Source: an uncultured Rickettsiales bacterium (lineage in GTDB: Bacteria; Myxococcota_A; UBA796; UBA9615; CAYRNR01). Taken from it: a stretch of 64,000 nt of DNA. The stretch is taken from positions 14,612-78,611 of the forward strand of contig CAZLEO010000002.1 of NCBI GenBank assembly GCA_964558555.1, given 5' to 3'. Positions 16,769-63,993 of this stretch are shown here, piece after piece; the first letter of the stretch is position 1; each line of letters begins with the position of its first letter. The notes under the pieces are model-generated. The model ran no database searches, was not told the origin of the DNA, and saw only the letters and a list, made by a program, of their open reading frames with translations. Position numbers and translations under genes: made by a program.

Positions 16769-17488
16769 CTAGTCCCGCGCCGCGTCCCACGCCGCCAGCA
16801 CCGCCGTCACCGCCTCGTCGAGGGTGAACACATCCATGTTCAACACGATGTCGTAGTTGTCCGGATCGGTGATGTCGGCCTTGAAGTAGTGCTTGGCGAA
16901 CGCCTTGCGGTCGGCCTCGCGCTGCAGGATCAGCAGCTTGGCGCGCACGGTGGACATGTCGAGGATGTTGGCGATGTAGTCCATGCGCATCTCCAGCGGG
17001 GCGATGATGCGCACGCGCAGGCAGTTCTCGCGCGGGAAGATGAAGTTGGCGCCGCGGCCCACCACGACACCCCCGGCGCCCTCGCCGATCTCGAGGACCA
17101 CCTTGGTGAGGTGTTCGAGGTACTCGTCGGGCCGCAGGTTGAGGTGGCGCAGGTATCGCTGGGGCATGAGCTGGCGCTGCGTGACCAGCGAGTCGAACCA
17201 CCCCTCCATCACCGAGTGCCCCCGCTCGTCGCGGCTCTCCACGGCCCCCTCGTCGGTCCGCGCGCTCTGGGCGATCTTGAGGATGAGCTCGCGGTCGTAG
17301 TAACGCAGGCCCGCCTCCTGGGCCACGCGCGCGGCGATGAGCTTGCCCCCGCTGCCCGCCTGGCGCGAGACGGTGATCACGCGCAGGTCGAACTTGCGGG
17401 CCTCCTTGCGCCGGGTCTCCACGCCGTCCCACTTGCCGAGCTGGTCCGCCAGGACCTTCTCCATTCCCTCGGTCATCGTCTTGGTCAT
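16769..17488 (-). CDS. Cytidylate-kinase-like (AAA/P-loop) family protein
   Basis: P-loop ITVSRQAGSGGKLIA. The overall layout resembles the Cytidylate_kin2 family. Start MTKTMTE has RBS GGGAGG. Confidence 0.6.
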   Translation of the reverse strand: MTKTMTEGMEKVLADQLGKWDGVETRRKEARKFDLRVITVSRQAGSGGKLIAARVAQEAGLRYYDRELILKIAQSARTDEGAVESRDERGHSVMEGWFDSLVTQRQLMPQRYLRHLNLRPDEYLEHLTKVVLEIGEGAGGVVVGRGANFIFPRENCLRVRIIAPLEMRMDYIANILDMSTVRAKLLILQREADRKAFAKHYFKADITDPDNYDIVLNMDVFTLDEAVTAVLAAWDAARD

Positions 17489-17739
17489 GCACCCTCCCAG
17501 GGCTTCCTCATCCTCTTCGAGGGTACCACAGCGGCGTCCCATCGCCGCTGCCGAAGCATCCGGGCTCCTAATATGGGGGCGGCTGTTTTCATTTTTCGAC
17601 TGTCCTCCGCGGTGAAAGCTGTTACTGTTTCGTCTGGTTCGAAACCAATACGTAGAACAGCGGACATCAGCAGAGAACCTGCCACGTACACACCGCACAT
17701 CCACAACAGCCGGGGGGCGACCGGGAGGAGAGAAGTACT

Positions 17740-18411
17740 ATGCCGGCCAAGAATCCACTGCAGGAGGCCATCGAGAAGGCAGCACAGAATTTTGCCGCAG
17801 AGCTTCTGCTGGCCATTCGCAACGCGACCGTCGACGACATCGCCAGCCTGACGGAGGGGGCGGCGGCGCCCGCCAAGGACGCCGCTCCCGAGGCGGAGGC
17901 CGCCCCGGTCAAGAAACCCCGCAAGAAGCGTGCGTGGCCCACGTGCTCCGTGGACGGGTGCGAGAAGAATGTGTACATGCCTTCGGGCGCCAAGAAGATG
18001 TGCTACGCCCACCACATGGAAGCCGGCGGCAAGCCCTCTCCGCTGGTCGGTGTGCACAAGAAGAAGAAGAAGGCCGCGGTAAAGGCCAAGCCTGCCAAGA
18101 AGGCCGCGCCGAAGGCCGCGCCGAAGGCGGTGAAGAAGGAAGCGGCGCCCGCGGTCGAGGCCGCGCCGGAGAAGAAGGCCCGCAAGAAGCGCGCCTGGCC
18201 CACCTGCACGGTGGACGGCTGCACCAAGAACGTCTACATGCCGTCCGGCGACAAGAAGATGTGCTACGCCCACCACCTCGAGGCGGGCGGCAAGGAGTCG
18301 CCGCTGGTCGCGGCCACCAAGAAGCGCAAGGCGGCGGCCAAGAAAGCGCCGGCCAGGAAGAAGGCCGTGGTGCGCAAGGCCGGCCAGACCTCCCTCAAGA
18401 GCAAGAAGTAG
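17740..18411 (+). CDS. Lys/Ala-rich (histone H1-like) protein with two tandem copies of a putative zinc-binding Cys3-His2 motif
   Basis: RAWPTC(S/T)VDGC(E/T)KNVYMPSG(A/D)KKMCYAHH(M/L)EAGGK occurs twice, separated and flanked by AKPAKKAAPKAAPKAVKK-type tails. RBS GGGAGGAGAG. Preceded by a ~250-nt lower-GC leader. Confidence 0.7.
   Translation: MPAKNPLQEAIEKAAQNFAAELLLAIRNATVDDIASLTEGAAAPAKDAAPEAEAAPVKKPRKKRAWPTCSVDGCEKNVYMPSGAKKMCYAHHMEAGGKPSPLVGVHKKKKKAAVKAKPAKKAAPKAAPKAVKKEAAPAVEAAPEKKARKKRAWPTCTVDGCTKNVYMPSGDKKMCYAHHLEAGGKESPLVAATKKRKAAAKKAPARKKAVVRKAGQTSLKSKK
17917..18310 (+). repeat. Imperfect ~130-bp direct repeat (17917-18046 and 18181-18310) encoding the duplicated zinc-motif module
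   Basis: cgcaagaagcg(t/c)gc(g/c)tggcccac(g/c)tgc...aagaagatgtgctacgcccaccac is present twice with ~80% nt identity. Confidence 0.8.
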
Positions 18412-18415
18412 CCGC

Positions 18416-19672
18416 CTAGGCGGCGTCCTCTCCCAGCCTCCCGAAGTCCGCCCCCGTCGGGTCCTGGAACACCCTCAGGTCGAACTCCGGCACCGCCGCG
18501 AGCAGGTGGTCGAAGACGTCCGCCTGGATGCCCTCGTACTCCACCCACACCGTGGTCCGGGTGAAGACGTAGATCTGGATCGGCAGGCCGTGCTCGGAGG
18601 GGGCGAGCTGGCGCACCAGGAACGTCATGCCCTCGGTGTGGATGTCGGGGTGGTGTTTCAGGTAGGCCGAGACGTAGGCACGGAAGGTGCCGACGTTGGT
18701 GAGCCGACGGCCGTTGACCTTGAGGGTGTCGTCGACCTTGTGGGTGTCGTTGTACTCGGCGACCTCGGCCTCGACCTGTTCGAGGTACTCGCGGATGAAC
18801 TCGATCTTGTGGAAGCGCTCGAGCATCTCCGGCGTGCAGAACCGGATGGAGCTGACGTCGATGTTGATCGACCGACAGATGCGCCGCCCGCCCGAGTCGG
18901 TCATGCCGCGCCAGTTCTTGAACGAGTCCGAGATCAGCGCGTAGGTGGGGATGGTGGTGATGGTCTTGTCCCAGTTCTGGACCTTGACCGTGGTCAGGGA
19001 GATGTCGATCACCGTTCCGTCGGCGCCGTACTTGGGCAACGCGATCCAGTCGCCGAGGTGGACCATGTTGTTGGCGGTGAGCTGGATGCCGCCCACGAAC
19101 CCCAGGATGGGGTCCTTGAACACCAGCATGAGCACCGCGGTCAGCGCGCCGAGGCCGCCGAGGAAGAACTTGGGCGACTCGCCCATGAGGATGGACAGCA
19201 CGAAGATGCCCACCACGAAGGCGATGATCACCTTGATGACCTGGAAGAACCCGCGGATCGGCACGCGCTGGGCCACGTCGAACGTGCGGTAGATGCCCAG
19301 CACGCCGTTGAGCAGGGCGTCCACCACCAGGAAGCCGACGATCAGCATGTAGATGTTGGCCGCGCCGTGGGTGACCGAGATCAGCCGCTCGTGGCCGGCA
19401 AACGGGATCTCGGCGGCGAGGTAGATGACGATGGACGGCGCGAGGTGGGCCGCGCGGTTGAACAGCCGCTTCTCCAGCAGCTGGTCGTCCCACTTGGTGC
19501 CGGACCTGCGGATGGCCTTGGACACCAGGGTGAGCAGGATCCGCTTGGTGATGATGTTGGCCAGGTAGCTCAGCAGGATGACCAGCACCACGAGGATGGC
19601 GCGGGCGGCCAGGTCGGCGACGCCTTCGGTGGCGCCGAGCTTGGTGAGGTAGGGCACGAGGTAGTCGATCAT
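18416..19672 (-). CDS. Mechanosensitive ion channel, MscS family (YbdG/MscM-like)
   Basis: N-terminal TM helices followed by the conserved MscS beta-domain GDWIALPKYGADGTVIDISLTTVKVQNWDKTITTIPTYALISDSFKNW. Confidence 0.85.
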   Translation of the reverse strand: MIDYLVPYLTKLGATEGVADLAARAILVVLVILLSYLANIITKRILLTLVSKAIRRSGTKWDDQLLEKRLFNRAAHLAPSIVIYLAAEIPFAGHERLISVTHGAANIYMLIVGFLVVDALLNGVLGIYRTFDVAQRVPIRGFFQVIKVIIAFVVGIFVLSILMGESPKFFLGGLGALTAVLMLVFKDPILGFVGGIQLTANNMVHLGDWIALPKYGADGTVIDISLTTVKVQNWDKTITTIPTYALISDSFKNWRGMTDSGGRRICRSINIDVSSIRFCTPEMLERFHKIEFIREYLEQVEAEVAEYNDTHKVDDTLKVNGRRLTNVGTFRAYVSAYLKHHPDIHTEGMTFLVRQLAPSEHGLPIQIYVFTRTTVWVEYEGIQADVFDHLLAAVPEFDLRVFQDPTGADFGRLGEDAA

Positions 19673-59808: not shown

Positions 59809-61557
59809 TCACACCTCCTCGGAGAGCCGGCCGACGATGAAGTCGGCGGACAGGGGACGGCCGTCCCACTTGAGGACCTCGCCCTCGAACGTGCAGCCGA
59901 GCTCGCTGCGCAGGACGGACGCCAGCTGGCCCGTGGAGTTGCCCTCCACGGCGACCAGCCGCCCGGCCTTGACCAGCTCGTCCAGCGCGGCGTCCCGGTC
60001 CAGGGGCCACAGGTCGGCGAACTGCAGCACGTTGACCGATCCGCCGCCGGCGTTGATCTGCGCGGCGGCCTCGCGGGCGGGGCCGGTGGTGCCGCCCCAG
60101 CACACCAGGGTCGTGTCGGCGTCCTCGGGGCCGTGCCAGACGGGCGCTCTCATCTCTGCCGCGGCTGCGGCCAGCTTGCTCATGCGCTTGTACTGCTGCG
60201 TGGTGCGGGTCTCGGCGTCCTCGGTGAGGGCGCCGGCGGTGGTGTGCTCGTTGCCGGTGATCGTGAACACGGCCCTGGGGTGGCCGGGCAGGGCCCGCGG
60301 CGACACGCCGGTGTTCGTCACCTCGTAGCGCACGTAGGGCACATCCAGCTCGTCCAGGGCCGCCGCGTCCAGCAGGGAGCCGCGGTCGATGTGGACCTTC
60401 GACACGTCGAACACGTCGGTCTCCACGGTGCGGATGGACGTGGCGAGGTAGTGCTCGGTGAGCACGATGACCGGGCACTGATACTGCTCGGCGAGGTTGA
60501 ACGCCCGCCAGCCCGCCTCGAAGCACTCCTCGATGGTGCCGGGGGCGAGCAGGATGCGCGGGAACTCCCCGTGGCCCGCGTGCAGGGCGAACTTCAGGTC
60601 TGCCTGCTCGGTGCGGGTGGCCAGGCCGGTGGCCGGGCCCGGGCGCTGGGCCAGGACGATCACCGCCGGGGTCTCGCTCATCCCGGCCAGGCTGAGCGCC
60701 TCGACCATCAGCGAGAAGCCGCCGCCCGACGTGGAGGTCATGGCGCGTGCGCCCATGTGGGCCGCGCCGACGACCATGTTCATCGCCGAGATCTCGTCCT
60801 CGGTGTGCTTGACCACGACGCCGTGGCTGGCGCCCTTGCCCGCGAGCCACTCGAAGATGGAGGTGCCCGGGGTCATGGGGTAGGCCGCGAGGAAGCTGCA
60901 GCCCCCGACCAGGGCGCCGTAGGCCAGGGCGTGGTTGCCGTCGATCAACATCCGCTCGGGCGGGTCGTCCTGGGCGCGCAGCCGGTACTCGAACCCCTCG
61001 GCGTGGTGCTCGGCGCCGTACTCGTAGGCGGCCCTGGCCACGGCGCGGTTGGCCTCGATGACCTTGTCGCCCTTCTTCTTGAACTGCCGCGCGAGGGTGT
61101 CCAGCAGCGGCTCGATGGGATAGCGGAACACCGCCGCGGCCACGGCCACGGACGCGGCCCCGGCCATGACGGGCCTGCCGCCGATCTCCTTGGCGATCTT
61201 GATCAGCGGCGCGGGCATCGCCCGGACGCCGCGCGACTCCAGGGCCGCGACGTCCACCTCGAGGTCCTCGTCGTAGATCACGCCGCCACCGGGCACGATC
61301 TGGTCGGCGAAGCGACCCACGGCCTCGGGGGTCTGCGCGAGCAGCAGGTGGATGTGGTGGCCGTGCGCGTGCACCGGGTCCTCGTCCACGTCCATGCGGT
61401 AGAAGTTGAGGCCGCCGCGGATGCGGGACTCGTAGTCCTTGCGGCCGAACACGTGCAGGCCGCCCCGCGCCAGGGTGCGGGCCAGCAGCGCGCCGTTGGA
61501 CTCGACCCCCTGGCCGGCCTGGCCGGCGAACTTGATGGCGATTCTCTGTTCCGTCAT
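59809..61557 (-). CDS. korA: 2-oxoacid:ferredoxin oxidoreductase alpha subunit (KorA-like)
   Basis: 582-aa OFOR alpha/gamma fusion typical of two-subunit KorAB enzymes (AYPMTPGTSIFEWLA, GGGFSLMVEALSLAGMSETPAVIVLAQRPGPATG). Confidence 0.85.
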   Translation of the reverse strand: MTEQRIAIKFAGQAGQGVESNGALLARTLARGGLHVFGRKDYESRIRGGLNFYRMDVDEDPVHAHGHHIHLLLAQTPEAVGRFADQIVPGGGVIYDEDLEVDVAALESRGVRAMPAPLIKIAKEIGGRPVMAGAASVAVAAAVFRYPIEPLLDTLARQFKKKGDKVIEANRAVARAAYEYGAEHHAEGFEYRLRAQDDPPERMLIDGNHALAYGALVGGCSFLAAYPMTPGTSIFEWLAGKGASHGVVVKHTEDEISAMNMVVGAAHMGARAMTSTSGGGFSLMVEALSLAGMSETPAVIVLAQRPGPATGLATRTEQADLKFALHAGHGEFPRILLAPGTIEECFEAGWRAFNLAEQYQCPVIVLTEHYLATSIRTVETDVFDVSKVHIDRGSLLDAAALDELDVPYVRYEVTNTGVSPRALPGHPRAVFTITGNEHTTAGALTEDAETRTTQQYKRMSKLAAAAAEMRAPVWHGPEDADTTLVCWGGTTGPAREAAAQINAGGGSVNVLQFADLWPLDRDAALDELVKAGRLVAVEGNSTGQLASVLRSELGCTFEGEVLKWDGRPLSADFIVGRLSEEV

Positions 61558-61597
61558 CGAATACCTCGATTCTTCGCCTCGACGCCGGGCAGTCTAT

Positions 61598-61612
61598 GCA
61601 GATTCGGTGCCA
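61598..61612 (-). promoter_or_regulatory. Candidate sigma-54 promoter upstream of korA
   Basis: The minus strand reads TGGCACCGAATCTGC: a perfect -24 TGGCAC, and CTGC at -12 (1 mismatch to TTGC), with correct GG-N10-GC spacing. It lies ~40 nt upstream of the korA start. Confidence 0.5.
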
Positions 61613-61815
61613 TTGTCTGCAGACCGGTCGCCTCGGCTGGCGTGCACCGGAGGGAGCCTCCCGCGGAGAGCCGGTGGGACAGGTGGCGGTGTCTCCTGAG
61701 ACATCACACCGTTCGCGAGACAGGCCGACGAGGCGGGTCGTCGCGGCTCGAAGATCGCGTCAAGGGCTCGACGTGCAACGCCCGCCAGGGGTTCTGGCGA
61801 CCCTCTCGCCCCCGT

Positions 61816-61831
61816 TGGTACGGACCTTGCT
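61816..61831 (+). promoter_or_regulatory. Candidate sigma-54 promoter upstream of the erythrin-like gene pair
   Basis: TGGTACGGACCTTGCT against TGGCAC-N5-TTGCW: 1 mismatch, perfect -12, correct spacing. About 60 nt upstream of ATG 61894. Confidence 0.5.
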
Positions 61832-61893
61832 ATTCTCTCGTCTCGTCCCCACGGCGGACGGTCGCTGCGGGAGATCGACAAGAGGGAGCAGCG

Positions 61894-62388
61894 ATGGCTC
61901 AGAGCTTCAACATCGACGAGATCCTGCAGATGGCCACCCAGATCGAGCGCAACGGCGGCAAGTTCTACCGCCTGGCCGCCGATCTGACCGACGACGAGCC
62001 GGTCAGGCAGACCCTGACCATGCTCGCGCAGATGGAGGACGACCACGAGGTCACCTTCGAGTCCATGCGCGAGTCGGGCGACTTCTCCGGCTTCGACGAG
62101 TTCGATCTCGACGGCCAGGCGGGCGCCTACCTGCAGGCGGTCGCGGACGGGTACGTCTTCGACGTCAACGAGGACCCGGCCGACGTGCTGGCGGGCAACC
62201 CCGACGCCCTGCGCATCCTGCGCATCGCCATCGGCCGGGAGAAGGACGCGGTCACGCTGTTCGCCGGCCTCAAGGAGGCCATGCCCAGCACCTGGGGACA
62301 GGACAAGGTCGACGCCATCATCCGCGAGGAGCTGTCCCACATCGCCATCCTCAGCAACGAGATCCGCCAATTGAAGGAGCGCAACTGA
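61894..62388 (+). CDS. Ferritin-like/rubrerythrin-family di-iron four-helix-bundle protein (erythrin-like, no rubredoxin domain)
   Basis: Di-iron ligand pattern E(IERNGGKFY)...ExxH(MEDDHE)...E(GREKDAV)...ExxH(EELSHI). RBS GAGGGAG. Confidence 0.65.
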   Translation: MAQSFNIDEILQMATQIERNGGKFYRLAADLTDDEPVRQTLTMLAQMEDDHEVTFESMRESGDFSGFDEFDLDGQAGAYLQAVADGYVFDVNEDPADVLAGNPDALRILRIAIGREKDAVTLFAGLKEAMPSTWGQDKVDAIIREELSHIAILSNEIRQLKERN

Positions 62389-62915
62389 TGTCCGATACGC
62401 CTACCTTTGGTCAGATCGTGGCCACCGCCCTGGAGATGGAGGGCAAGGGTCGAAGGTTCTATGCAGAGCAGCTCACCAAGTGCGGCAACGCCTTGACCAA
62501 GGAGCTGTTCCAGCGGCTGCACGACGACGAGATCGAGCACGTGCGCCGCATCAAGAACATCGTGGCGTCCCTGGACGCGGGTGTGAGCCTCGACGGCGTC
62601 GAGTTCGGCGATCCCGACGAGGACGACCTCGGTTCGTTCTTCCGCACCATGGCCCGCAAGCACGGCGCCAGCGTGGACGACCAGACCGTGGACGTGGAGG
62701 CGGTGGAGATCGGCATCGACTTCGAGCAGCGGGCGGTGACCTTCTACAAGGACCGCCTGGAGATCTCCACGGATCCGGCCGAGCGCAGATTCCTCCAGGC
62801 CATGGTCACCGAGGAGCGGGGCCACCACGCCACGCTGCGCGATCTGAAGTTCTACCTCACCGATCCCGAGGGGTACTTCGCCGAGCTCGAGCGCGCCGGC
62901 CTCGACGGCGCGTGA
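62388..62915 (+). CDS. Ferritin-like/rubrerythrin-family di-iron protein, paralog 2
   Basis: E(LEMEGKGRRFY)...ExxH(DEIEHV)...E(DFEQRAV)...ExxH(EERGHH). Start overlaps the upstream stop (TGATG). Confidence 0.65.
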   Translation: MSDTPTFGQIVATALEMEGKGRRFYAEQLTKCGNALTKELFQRLHDDEIEHVRRIKNIVASLDAGVSLDGVEFGDPDEDDLGSFFRTMARKHGASVDDQTVDVEAVEIGIDFEQRAVTFYKDRLEISTDPAERRFLQAMVTEERGHHATLRDLKFYLTDPEGYFAELERAGLDGA

Positions 62916-62925
62916 GCGATTCCCG

Positions 62926-63993
62926 TCAGGAACGCTCGGGGACCCTCGCCTCGGTCGGAAGGATGGGCATGATCTTGATGCCCACCACGAACAGCAACCC
63001 GACGAAACCGAAGACGCCCAGCGCCTGGAGGAACTCCAGGAAGGTGGGCGTGTAGGTGGCGACCCCTTCCACGGCCGTGTAGGCGGCGAACTCCGCGGGT
63101 GTGGGCACGATCTCCATGCCGGGGAACAGGTCGGCGGGGTGGATCAGGCCCGGGATCACGATGACGTAGCGCTCGCACAGCACGCCGAACACCACCATGG
63201 AGCCGGCGACGACCACGCCTCGCACCGTCTTGCCGTAGCGGCTGAAGAGGATGAACAGCGGCGTGACGAATCCGACCAGGAACATCCCGCCCCAGAACAA
63301 GAAGCCGTGGAAGCCCTCGAACAGGTAGTGAATCGCGGCCTCCCGGGACCCGATCATGTAGAAGCGATGGAGGTTCTCGATCAGGATGAGGTACAGCACC
63401 ACGATGATGAACACGCTCATCAGCCGGCCCAGCCAGATCACCAGCTGGTCGTCCAGGTGCCGCTTCGTCAGCCTGAACAGCACCACGAACAGCACGATGA
63501 TGAACCCCGCGCCGGACGCCAGGGCCGCGGCCACGAAGCTCGGCGGCAGCAGCGGCGACGTGTACAGCTCCCGGGGTACGAAGCCGAAGATCGCGGCCGT
63601 GCCGCTGTGCACCATGATGGCCCAGCCCACGACCACGTAGGCCGACACCTTGGTCAGCCGCGGCATCTCCCGGAGCAGGGCGAACAGGTAGACGACGCAC
63701 AGGAAGATGTGCCCACCGTACAGTCCGGGATTGATGGAGAACATCGACAGCAGGTTGAAGTGCACGAAGGGCTCGATGAAGAACCGATCGAGCCGCCCCT
63801 GATCCGTGGTGATGGACAGCAGCCCCGCGATCAGGAAGAGCATCGCCATGAAGGCGGCGAGCCGGGCGAAGGGCTTGTAGTCGAGCTTGCCGAAGACCCC
63901 GTAGAGGCCCGACACGATCAGCGATCCTGCCGACAGCCCGATGTAGTAGATCGCCAGGATGATCTGCAGCCCCCACGCCGCGCGGTTGGTCAT
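62926..63993 (-). CDS. NrfD/PsrC-family polytopic membrane protein
   Basis: Start MTNRAAWGLQIIL at the window edge. About 9 TM helices with NrfD-like topology. Partner subunits presumably lie beyond the window. Confidence 0.6.
   Translation of the reverse strand: MTNRAAWGLQIILAIYYIGLSAGSLIVSGLYGVFGKLDYKPFARLAAFMAMLFLIAGLLSITTDQGRLDRFFIEPFVHFNLLSMFSINPGLYGGHIFLCVVYLFALLREMPRLTKVSAYVVVGWAIMVHSGTAAIFGFVPRELYTSPLLPPSFVAAALASGAGFIIVLFVVLFRLTKRHLDDQLVIWLGRLMSVFIIVVLYLILIENLHRFYMIGSREAAIHYLFEGFHGFLFWGGMFLVGFVTPLFILFSRYGKTVRGVVVAGSMVVFGVLCERYVIVIPGLIHPADLFPGMEIVPTPAEFAAYTAVEGVATYTPTFLEFLQALGVFGFVGLLFVVGIKIMPILPTEARVPERS

Follow-up and report, generated by a model that had tools for sequence, protein, structure and literature searches.

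The zinc-finger gene and its product

The stretch of DNA considered here, referred to below as the window, comprises 64,000 nucleotides of a contig (CAZLEO010000002.1, positions 14,612 to 78,611, forward strand) from an assembly deposited as an uncultured Rickettsiales bacterium (GCA_964558555.1). An open reading frame with an ATG start and a TAG stop, at 17740-18411 on the plus strand, encodes a strongly basic protein of 223 amino acids that carries two copies of a putative zinc-binding module (Table 1). The identical 223-residue protein is called on independent contigs from ENA, JGI and Logan. It contains 43 lysines, 49 alanines, 19 prolines and 8 arginines and has a calculated isoelectric point of 10.07. 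Among 5.8 billion clustered proteins 41 were recovered at E<=1e-3, with a best match to another protein of E 1.8e-98. Since 40 other proteins match at this threshold, the Cys3-His set of the module is invariant in 60 family modules and the two internal repeat copies show a ratio of non-synonymous to synonymous divergence (dN/dS) of 0.19, this is a real conserved gene whose pattern lies far above chance.

Table 1. Features of the zinc-finger locus; positions are counted from the first nucleotide of the window.
Feature	Position	Strand	Basis or remark
Divergent intergenic region, 251 nt	17489..17739		between the kinase-like and zinc-finger genes; presumably holds both promoters
Conserved 54-nt block, candidate promoter/operator of the zinc-finger gene	17582..17635	+	alignment with the closest orthologous locus (L001)
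Shine-Dalgarno-like sequence GGGAGGAGAG	17723..17732	+	ends 7 nt upstream of the ATG; conserved in L001
Coding sequence, 223 amino acids and TAG stop	17740..18411	+	open reading frame, gene calls, homologues, repeat dN/dS 0.19
N-terminal domain, residues 1-42	17740..17865	+	family alignments; AlphaFold2 pLDDT 82-95
Acidic Ala/Pro/Glu linker, residues 43-59	17866..17916	+	alignment, composition
Direct repeat, copy 1	17875..18077	+	sequence comparison
Zinc module 1, residues 60-106, PRKKRAWPTC-x4-C-x13-C-x2-H...EAGGKPSPL	17917..18057	+	conservation; AlphaFold2 pLDDT about 90
Histone-H1-like Lys/Ala/Pro linker, residues 107-146	18058..18177	+	composition, pLDDT
Direct repeat, copy 2	18136..18338	+	78% identical; lies 87 codons after copy 1 in the same frame
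Zinc module 2, residues 147-193	18178..18318	+	conservation, AlphaFold2
Basic C-terminal tail, residues 194-223	18319..18408	+	alignment, composition

A preliminary description of this DNA, made from the letters alone, portrayed the protein as three Lys/Ala-rich tails alternating with two modules. This layout holds for the middle and last segments and fails for the first, as residues 1-42 form a helical domain that is followed by an acidic linker. Both modules have exactly the form RAWPTC-x4-C-x13-C-x2-HH that had been described (residues 64-92 and 151-179).

Conservation and predicted structure of the zinc module

Alignment of the 60 family modules showed that the three cysteines and the first histidine are invariant, as are R5, S23, Y30 and G38, and that each of W7, P8, Y20, P22, G24, G37, P42 and L43 is kept in 56 modules or more. 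The position of the second histidine is occupied by His in 34 modules, Tyr in 13, Asn in 10 and Phe in three, and this residue is therefore not a ligand. The site is thus of Cys3-His1 type, with C69, C74, C88 and H91 as the putative ligands of module 1 and C156, C161, C175 and H178 as those of module 2; the Cys3His2 motif first proposed retains its three cysteines and its first histidine but not its second. Mean column identity of the finger across modules is 73%, and an invariant basic patch, K-K-R, lies directly N-terminal to each finger.

The isolated module was predicted by AlphaFold2 with a predicted local distance difference test score (pLDDT) of 84. The model contains a beta-bridge hairpin holding the first two cysteines and a short helix that starts from the third; a hairpin knuckle with a helix from the third cysteine is the treble-clef arrangement of established zinc-finger folds. 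Binding of zinc by the four conserved residues is predicted on the strength of this model and of the alignment. A sequence search of the PDB, with either the protein or the module profile as query, returned only chance-level fragments of C2H2, THAP and PHD fingers (E>=0.18), and a Foldseek search of the PDB with the predicted module gave no match with E<2.9.

Kinship with Zf_WRKY19-type fingers

No meaningful match was obtained when the full protein was scanned against Pfam and NCBIfam. Scans of single modules gave sub-threshold matches to PF24906 (Zf_WRKY19) for seven of the 60, with a best E value of 0.055; the gathering threshold of this family is 27 bits and the window modules fall below it. 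The order of ligands is nevertheless that of Zf_WRKY19, C-x4-C-x13-C-x2-H, with a glycine before the second cysteine in 55 of 60 modules and a loop about 1-4 residues longer than in the Zf_WRKY19-type members compared. A profile hidden Markov model (HMM) of the 60 modules was used for an exhaustive search, and two groups of proteins were found at the distant end of its results. One consists of eukaryote-like repeat proteins (P0094, P0106, P0115 and P0120), of which P0120 also carries a C-terminal RING finger. The other is of actinobacterial type, with repeats resembling CSVEGCDR..ARGMCRKHY (P0109 and P0123), and P0123 also has an HNH endonuclease domain. The gathering threshold of PF24906 is passed by P0094, P0106, P0109 and P0115, while P0123 scores 26.8 against the 27 required. 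Comparison of the module profile with the two groups by hhalign gave probabilities of 96.5% (E 9e-10) and 97.5% (E 8e-12). In these alignments every one of the four ligands is matched and the loop of the window family has an insertion of 2-4 residues. The values are to be read with the caveat that the proteins compared had been picked up by the HMM of the module itself and that short metal-binding motifs can converge.

From these alignments the module is concluded to be related to the CxxxGC...C-x2-H finger of Zf_WRKY19 type, from which it has diverged with an expanded loop, and it is not unrecognisable. The two share the ligand order and the knuckle C-S/T-V-D/E-G-C followed by hydrophobic-C-x2-H. 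They differ in that Zf_WRKY19-type members form tight tandem arrays of CxxxGC-x9-12-C-x2-H repeats, whereas proteins of the window family have one to three modules separated by long basic linkers; the latter are further set apart by a Y-x-P-S-G loop signature, a W-P pair before the first cysteine, the K-K-R patch and a GG-x3-PL extension. They also have no nuclease domain, unlike the HNH-bearing repeat protein. The eukaryote-like proteins P0106, P0111 and P0120 share an H-x2-E-A-G-G continuation with the bacterial family, so the module may have been transferred between domains of life. No paper on PF24906 or Zf_WRKY19 and no established function for it were found in the literature, and the kinship therefore does not tie the module to a well-known domain of established function.

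The N-terminal domain, basic segments and AT-hooks

Residues 1-42 carry a family signature, L..AI..AA..FA.EI...IR.AT..EL..L, and are modelled as two helices (residues 6-28 and 31-39). The profile of this domain has no match in Pfam, the PDB or the index of 5.8 billion proteins. One member gave a weak HhH match to this region (E 0.0012), which is treated as a lead only.

The linker between the modules contains 15 Lys/Arg, 14 Ala and five Pro among its 40 residues, and residues 121-144 within it are predicted to be disordered (pLDDT below 50). The tail contains 14 Lys/Arg, seven Ala and no acidic residue among 30 and includes a family-conserved KK.V.RK segment. Pooled, the two segments account for 29 Lys/Arg, 21 Ala and six Pro in 70 residues, with repeats of the AKPAKK and AAPKAAPKA kind, and parts of the basic segments flanking the modules (residues 101-115 and 188-202) are modelled as helix. 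Linker and tail are histone-H1-like in the sense of basic, disordered, low-complexity Lys/Ala/Pro sequence, as had been claimed for them; this class, to which AlgP, Hc1/Hc2, the N-domain of DdbA and the tail of HupB also belong, is a compositional one and not a homologous family.

In 33 of the 41 homologues one or two canonical RGRP AT-hooks, typically RRGRPPK, lie between the N-terminal domain and module 1. This position (the region of residues 43-59 in the window protein) is marked by a deletion both in the window protein and in P0004, the relative closest to it, and no RGRP core is present in the window protein or in the six reading frames of the window.

Internal duplication

The preliminary description had reported a direct repeat of about 130 bp at about 80% identity. 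The repeat is in fact longer, with 203 nt at 78% identity and an in-frame spacing of 261 nt (87 codons), and its 68 codons cover the zinc module together with portions of the adjoining linkers. Comparison of the two copies by the Nei-Gojobori method gave a dS of 0.85, a dN of 0.16 and a dN/dS of 0.19, from which it follows that the duplication is old and that both copies are under purifying selection. In the closest two-module relatives, P0004 and P0005, first modules group with first modules and second with second; the duplication is therefore older than the divergence from these two proteins.

Size and hosts of the family

All of the 41 matches are unnamed or annotated as hypothetical, and all but one are without a Pfam domain. 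An exhaustive HMMER search of 1.84 billion representatives with the 60-module profile recovered 96 proteins at E<=1e-3, 59 of them at E<=1e-10, and the number of modules per member ranges from one to three. Eight loci (L001-L008) were located in five metagenome-assembled genomes (MAGs) that are GTDB species representatives, with a locus G+C content (GC) of 66-72% compared with 69% for the window. In the data searched, the family is rare, unnamed and restricted to uncultured high-GC bacteria. Collections of phage and plasmid sequences and IMG/VR yielded no relatives, on which ground an origin from a mobile element was rejected, and there was no meaningful match in PHROGs.

All five MAGs are titled 'uncultured Rickettsiales bacterium', and this label looks doubtful given a GC of 66-72%. 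Neighbours of the family loci include eukaryote-like Ser/Thr kinases, activators of sigma-54 and proteins with FG-GAP/MopE motifs, all of which are common in Myxococcota, and it is the combination of these genes with the high GC that makes the taxonomic label look unreliable. Neither NCBIfam scans of further genes in the window nor a tblastn search with the NtrC-like neighbour yielded a lineage signal. One MAG, binchicken_co147_14, contains four paralogues (L002, L005, L006 and L007), three of them single-module proteins and the other a three-module one. The reading frame of L006 is open far upstream of the N-terminal domain and its start is uncertain.

Proposed function

This small, modular and strongly basic protein probably binds DNA and acts as a nucleoid-associated or architectural factor. 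A DNA ligand is favoured because of the AT-hooks of most relatives, the K-K-R patches and the H1-like linkers, and also because the module is related to the finger repeats of an HNH nuclease and because in distant members it occurs in one chain with a phage DNA-binding zinc finger or, by a weak match, a winged-helix-like region. CxxxxC/CxxH zinc-ribbon domains have been reported alongside HNH nicking domains (PMC3592412). The DNA-binding role suggested at the outset is thus still the most reasonable one, and the AT-hooks of the homologues strengthen it, while the assignment continues to be drawn from sequence. No Pfam or NCBIfam match to HU/IHF, H-NS, Lsr2, Fis or Dps was found in the window protein at E<=10.

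In a mechanism of this kind each core of about 35 residues (W-P-x-C-x4-C-x13-C-Y-x-H) would fold around one Zn2+ as a treble-clef-like finger, with two ligands supplied by the beta-hairpin knuckle and two by the start of the short helix. The K-K-R patches, the disordered Lys/Ala/Pro linker and the tail, to judge by their composition, would bind the DNA backbone electrostatically in the manner of H1-type tails, and two fingers separated by about 40 disordered residues could contact two sites on DNA and so bridge or bend it. The conserved amphipathic N-terminal helical hairpin may mediate self-association or recruit a partner. Most relatives, having RGRP AT-hooks, would therefore bind the minor groove at AT-rich tracts, which are scarce at 66-72% GC; the window protein, from which the AT-hooks have been lost, would rely on its fingers and tails. 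A bolder and rather doubtful proposal is that N-terminal hairpin oligomers, AT-hooks, Cys3-His fingers and H1-like tails together define an unrecognised class of bacterial chromatin protein, which in its uncultured high-GC lineage would be a nucleoid organiser or xenogeneic silencer that seeks AT tracts, a functional analogue of H-NS or Lsr2 made up wholly of eukaryote-style parts.

Other functions can be envisaged for the same architecture. The protein could be a sequence-specific transcription factor whose fingers read short motifs, whose tails raise affinity and whose paralogues control different regulons. The occurrence of four paralogues in one MAG, the variation in module number from one to three, differences among paralogue groups at positions between the first two cysteines and in the loop, and the site-specific nature of the HNH nicking enzymes that zinc-ribbon domains accompany (PMC3592412) would all be in agreement with this. 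However, no conserved neighbouring target gene and no upstream motif common to the loci was found, basic low-complexity sequence of the sort usual in non-specific binders makes up over half of the protein, and a finger surface with a mean column identity of 73% across paralogues leaves little room for divergent specificity, so that a role of this kind is unlikely. Less probable again is that, in place of chromosomal DNA, the protein binds RNA or some other polyanion, for instance polyphosphate or polyhydroxyalkanoate (PHA) granules, and so resembles the H1-like proteins PhaF and AlgP or a ribosome-associated zinc protein. The Lys/Ala/Pro tails of PhaF bind RNA (PMC12818456), AlgP associates with polyphosphate granules (PMC9239181), and several weak Foldseek matches of the module are chains of the small ribosomal subunit, read as fingers of the uS14/eS29 type. 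Those matches are all non-significant (E>=2.9), though, AT-hooks are minor-groove DNA motifs and occur in most of the relatives, and ppk, pha and ribosomal genes are not linked to the gene at any locus examined.

The resemblance of the module to A20-type fingers (C-x2-4-C-x11-C-x2-C), which have a similar spacing of ligands, suggests a further alternative, namely that the fingers bind other proteins, in the way that A20-type fingers bind ubiquitin, and that the protein is an adaptor and not a binder of nucleic acid. An A20-type finger gave the best superposition on the predicted module (root-mean-square deviation 1.0-1.3 A over 29-30 residues, in Foldseek matches that are non-significant). The Cys4 set of A20 is not found in the window family, where all 60 modules have histidine as the fourth ligand and the spacing is x13, and an adaptor function is considered extremely improbable.

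Comparison with known bacterial proteins

The DNA-binding architecture favoured here has parallels among characterised bacterial proteins. In CarD of Myxococcus xanthus, an HMGA-like AT-hook protein, AT-hooks and H1-like Lys/Ala/Pro tails are interchangeable (PMC8156234), and both solutions are present within the window family. CarD likewise joins a folded N-terminal interaction domain to a disordered basic DNA-binding region, but it has no zinc fingers, the window protein has no CarD_CdnL_TRCF domain (no Pfam match) and the N-terminal domains are unrelated. Streptomyces DdbA, whose H1-like half binds and condenses DNA (PMC3643593), is the only characterised bacterial protein found in the literature in which an H1-like lysine-rich region is joined to a zinc finger. 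Its finger is, however, a C4 finger of DksA type with RNA polymerase, not DNA, as its target, its domain order differs, and it has no sequence relation to the window protein (no DksA Pfam match). The resemblance to H-NS, Lsr2, MvaT and Rok is by analogy only. The shared general layout is a small N-terminal helical domain that may oligomerise, a flexible linker and a C-terminal DNA-binding part with AT-hook-like elements for the minor groove, and Lsr2 acts in a high-GC host (PMC8476142), but no sequence or domain match connects them to the window protein, which itself has no AT-hook.

The individual parts of the family are of known kinds, and the family is rare and uncharacterised. As far as the searches show, a layout of Zf_WRKY19-like Cys3-His fingers with H1-like tails, and with AT-hooks in relatives, has not been described before. 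If the DNA-binding role is correct, the family would add to the short list of bacterial proteins with eukaryote-like chromatin motifs (AT-hooks and histone-H1-like tails) and would provide a first functional hint, DNA binding, for the newly defined Zf_WRKY19-like type of finger in bacteria and eukaryotes. A further gain would be a suggestion of how DNA might be organised or silenced in an uncultured high-GC lineage for which these data show no obvious relative of H-NS or Lsr2. The practical impact is limited by uncultured hosts, by the very small size of the family (96 of 1.84 billion) and by the inferred nature of all functional statements.

The upstream region

The zinc-finger gene is monocistronic and diverges from a gene of the Cytidylate_kin2 family (16769-17488, minus strand). 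The preliminary description had placed about 250 nt of lower-GC, non-coding sequence before the gene, and this is borne out by an intergenic region of 251 nt with a GC of 0.53-0.59 against 0.69 window-wide. The closest orthologous locus is otherwise syntenic but does not have the Cytidylate_kin2-family gene, a Ser/Thr kinase gene directly preceding the zinc-finger gene there, which implies a lineage-specific insertion or loss. In all five loci on long contigs the family gene has a divergent gene before it, at a distance of about 190-250 nt. A conserved operon partner was considered and rejected, as the upstream MFS and kinase genes are common to the closest orthologue only and the other neighbours differ.

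The simplest reading of the intergenic region is an ordinary divergent promoter region, and the zinc-finger gene would have in it an upstream region of its own with a strong ribosome-binding site. A scan of the region for the sigma-70 consensus gave no match, and a sigma-54 element (-24/-12) looked for by eye in the conserved block was rejected since its spacing did not fit. That the region is instead a cis-regulatory RNA leader or a small RNA, as had been suggested, is very improbable. The spacer is unusually long and of lower GC, relatives have spacers of 190-250 nt as well, and the 54-nt block is kept in the closest orthologue despite a different adjoining gene. Against these points, Rfam gave no match in the region at E<=1 (nor anywhere in the window at gathering thresholds), the sequence folds no better than shuffled sequence (z-score -0.36, with 69 of 200 shuffles folding equally well or better), no upstream motif is shared family-wide, not even an 8-mer being common to the more distant loci, and the region is shared by two divergent genes whose promoters must fit in it anyway.

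Other observations at the loci

The three-module paralogue P0003, on the contig of L002, is followed with a 4-nt overlap by a gene for an AbiEii-family nucleotidyltransferase toxin (L014, 5984-6889; PF08843, 30.2 bits against a cut-off of 22.5). The position held there by the zinc-finger gene is normally occupied by the DNA-binding AbiEi antitoxin. This adjacency was not seen beside the other relatives with neighbourhoods examined. In a single-module subgroup (P0028 and P0030) the divergent upstream neighbour is a conserved protein of 372-374 amino acids that has no Pfam match (L012, 3637-4755, and L013, 3685-4809, both on the minus strand). After it come an EamA transporter and PDZ proteins, and the synteny is confined to the subgroup.

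Within the window, the zinc-finger gene converges on a gene for an MscS-like protein. The TAG of the former (18409-18411) and the stop of the latter (18416-18418, minus strand) leave the two genes 4 nt apart, and a perfect 14-nt palindrome, GCCGCCTAGGCGGC, extends across both stops (18411-18424). It may form a short hairpin shared by the two genes; no plus-strand T-run follows the palindrome. At the right end of the window (59809-63993), and unrelated to the zinc-finger gene, lie genes for the alpha subunit of a 2-oxoacid:acceptor oxidoreductase (TIGR03710, 613 bits), a protein with a ferritin-like domain and a DsrP/NrfD-like membrane protein.
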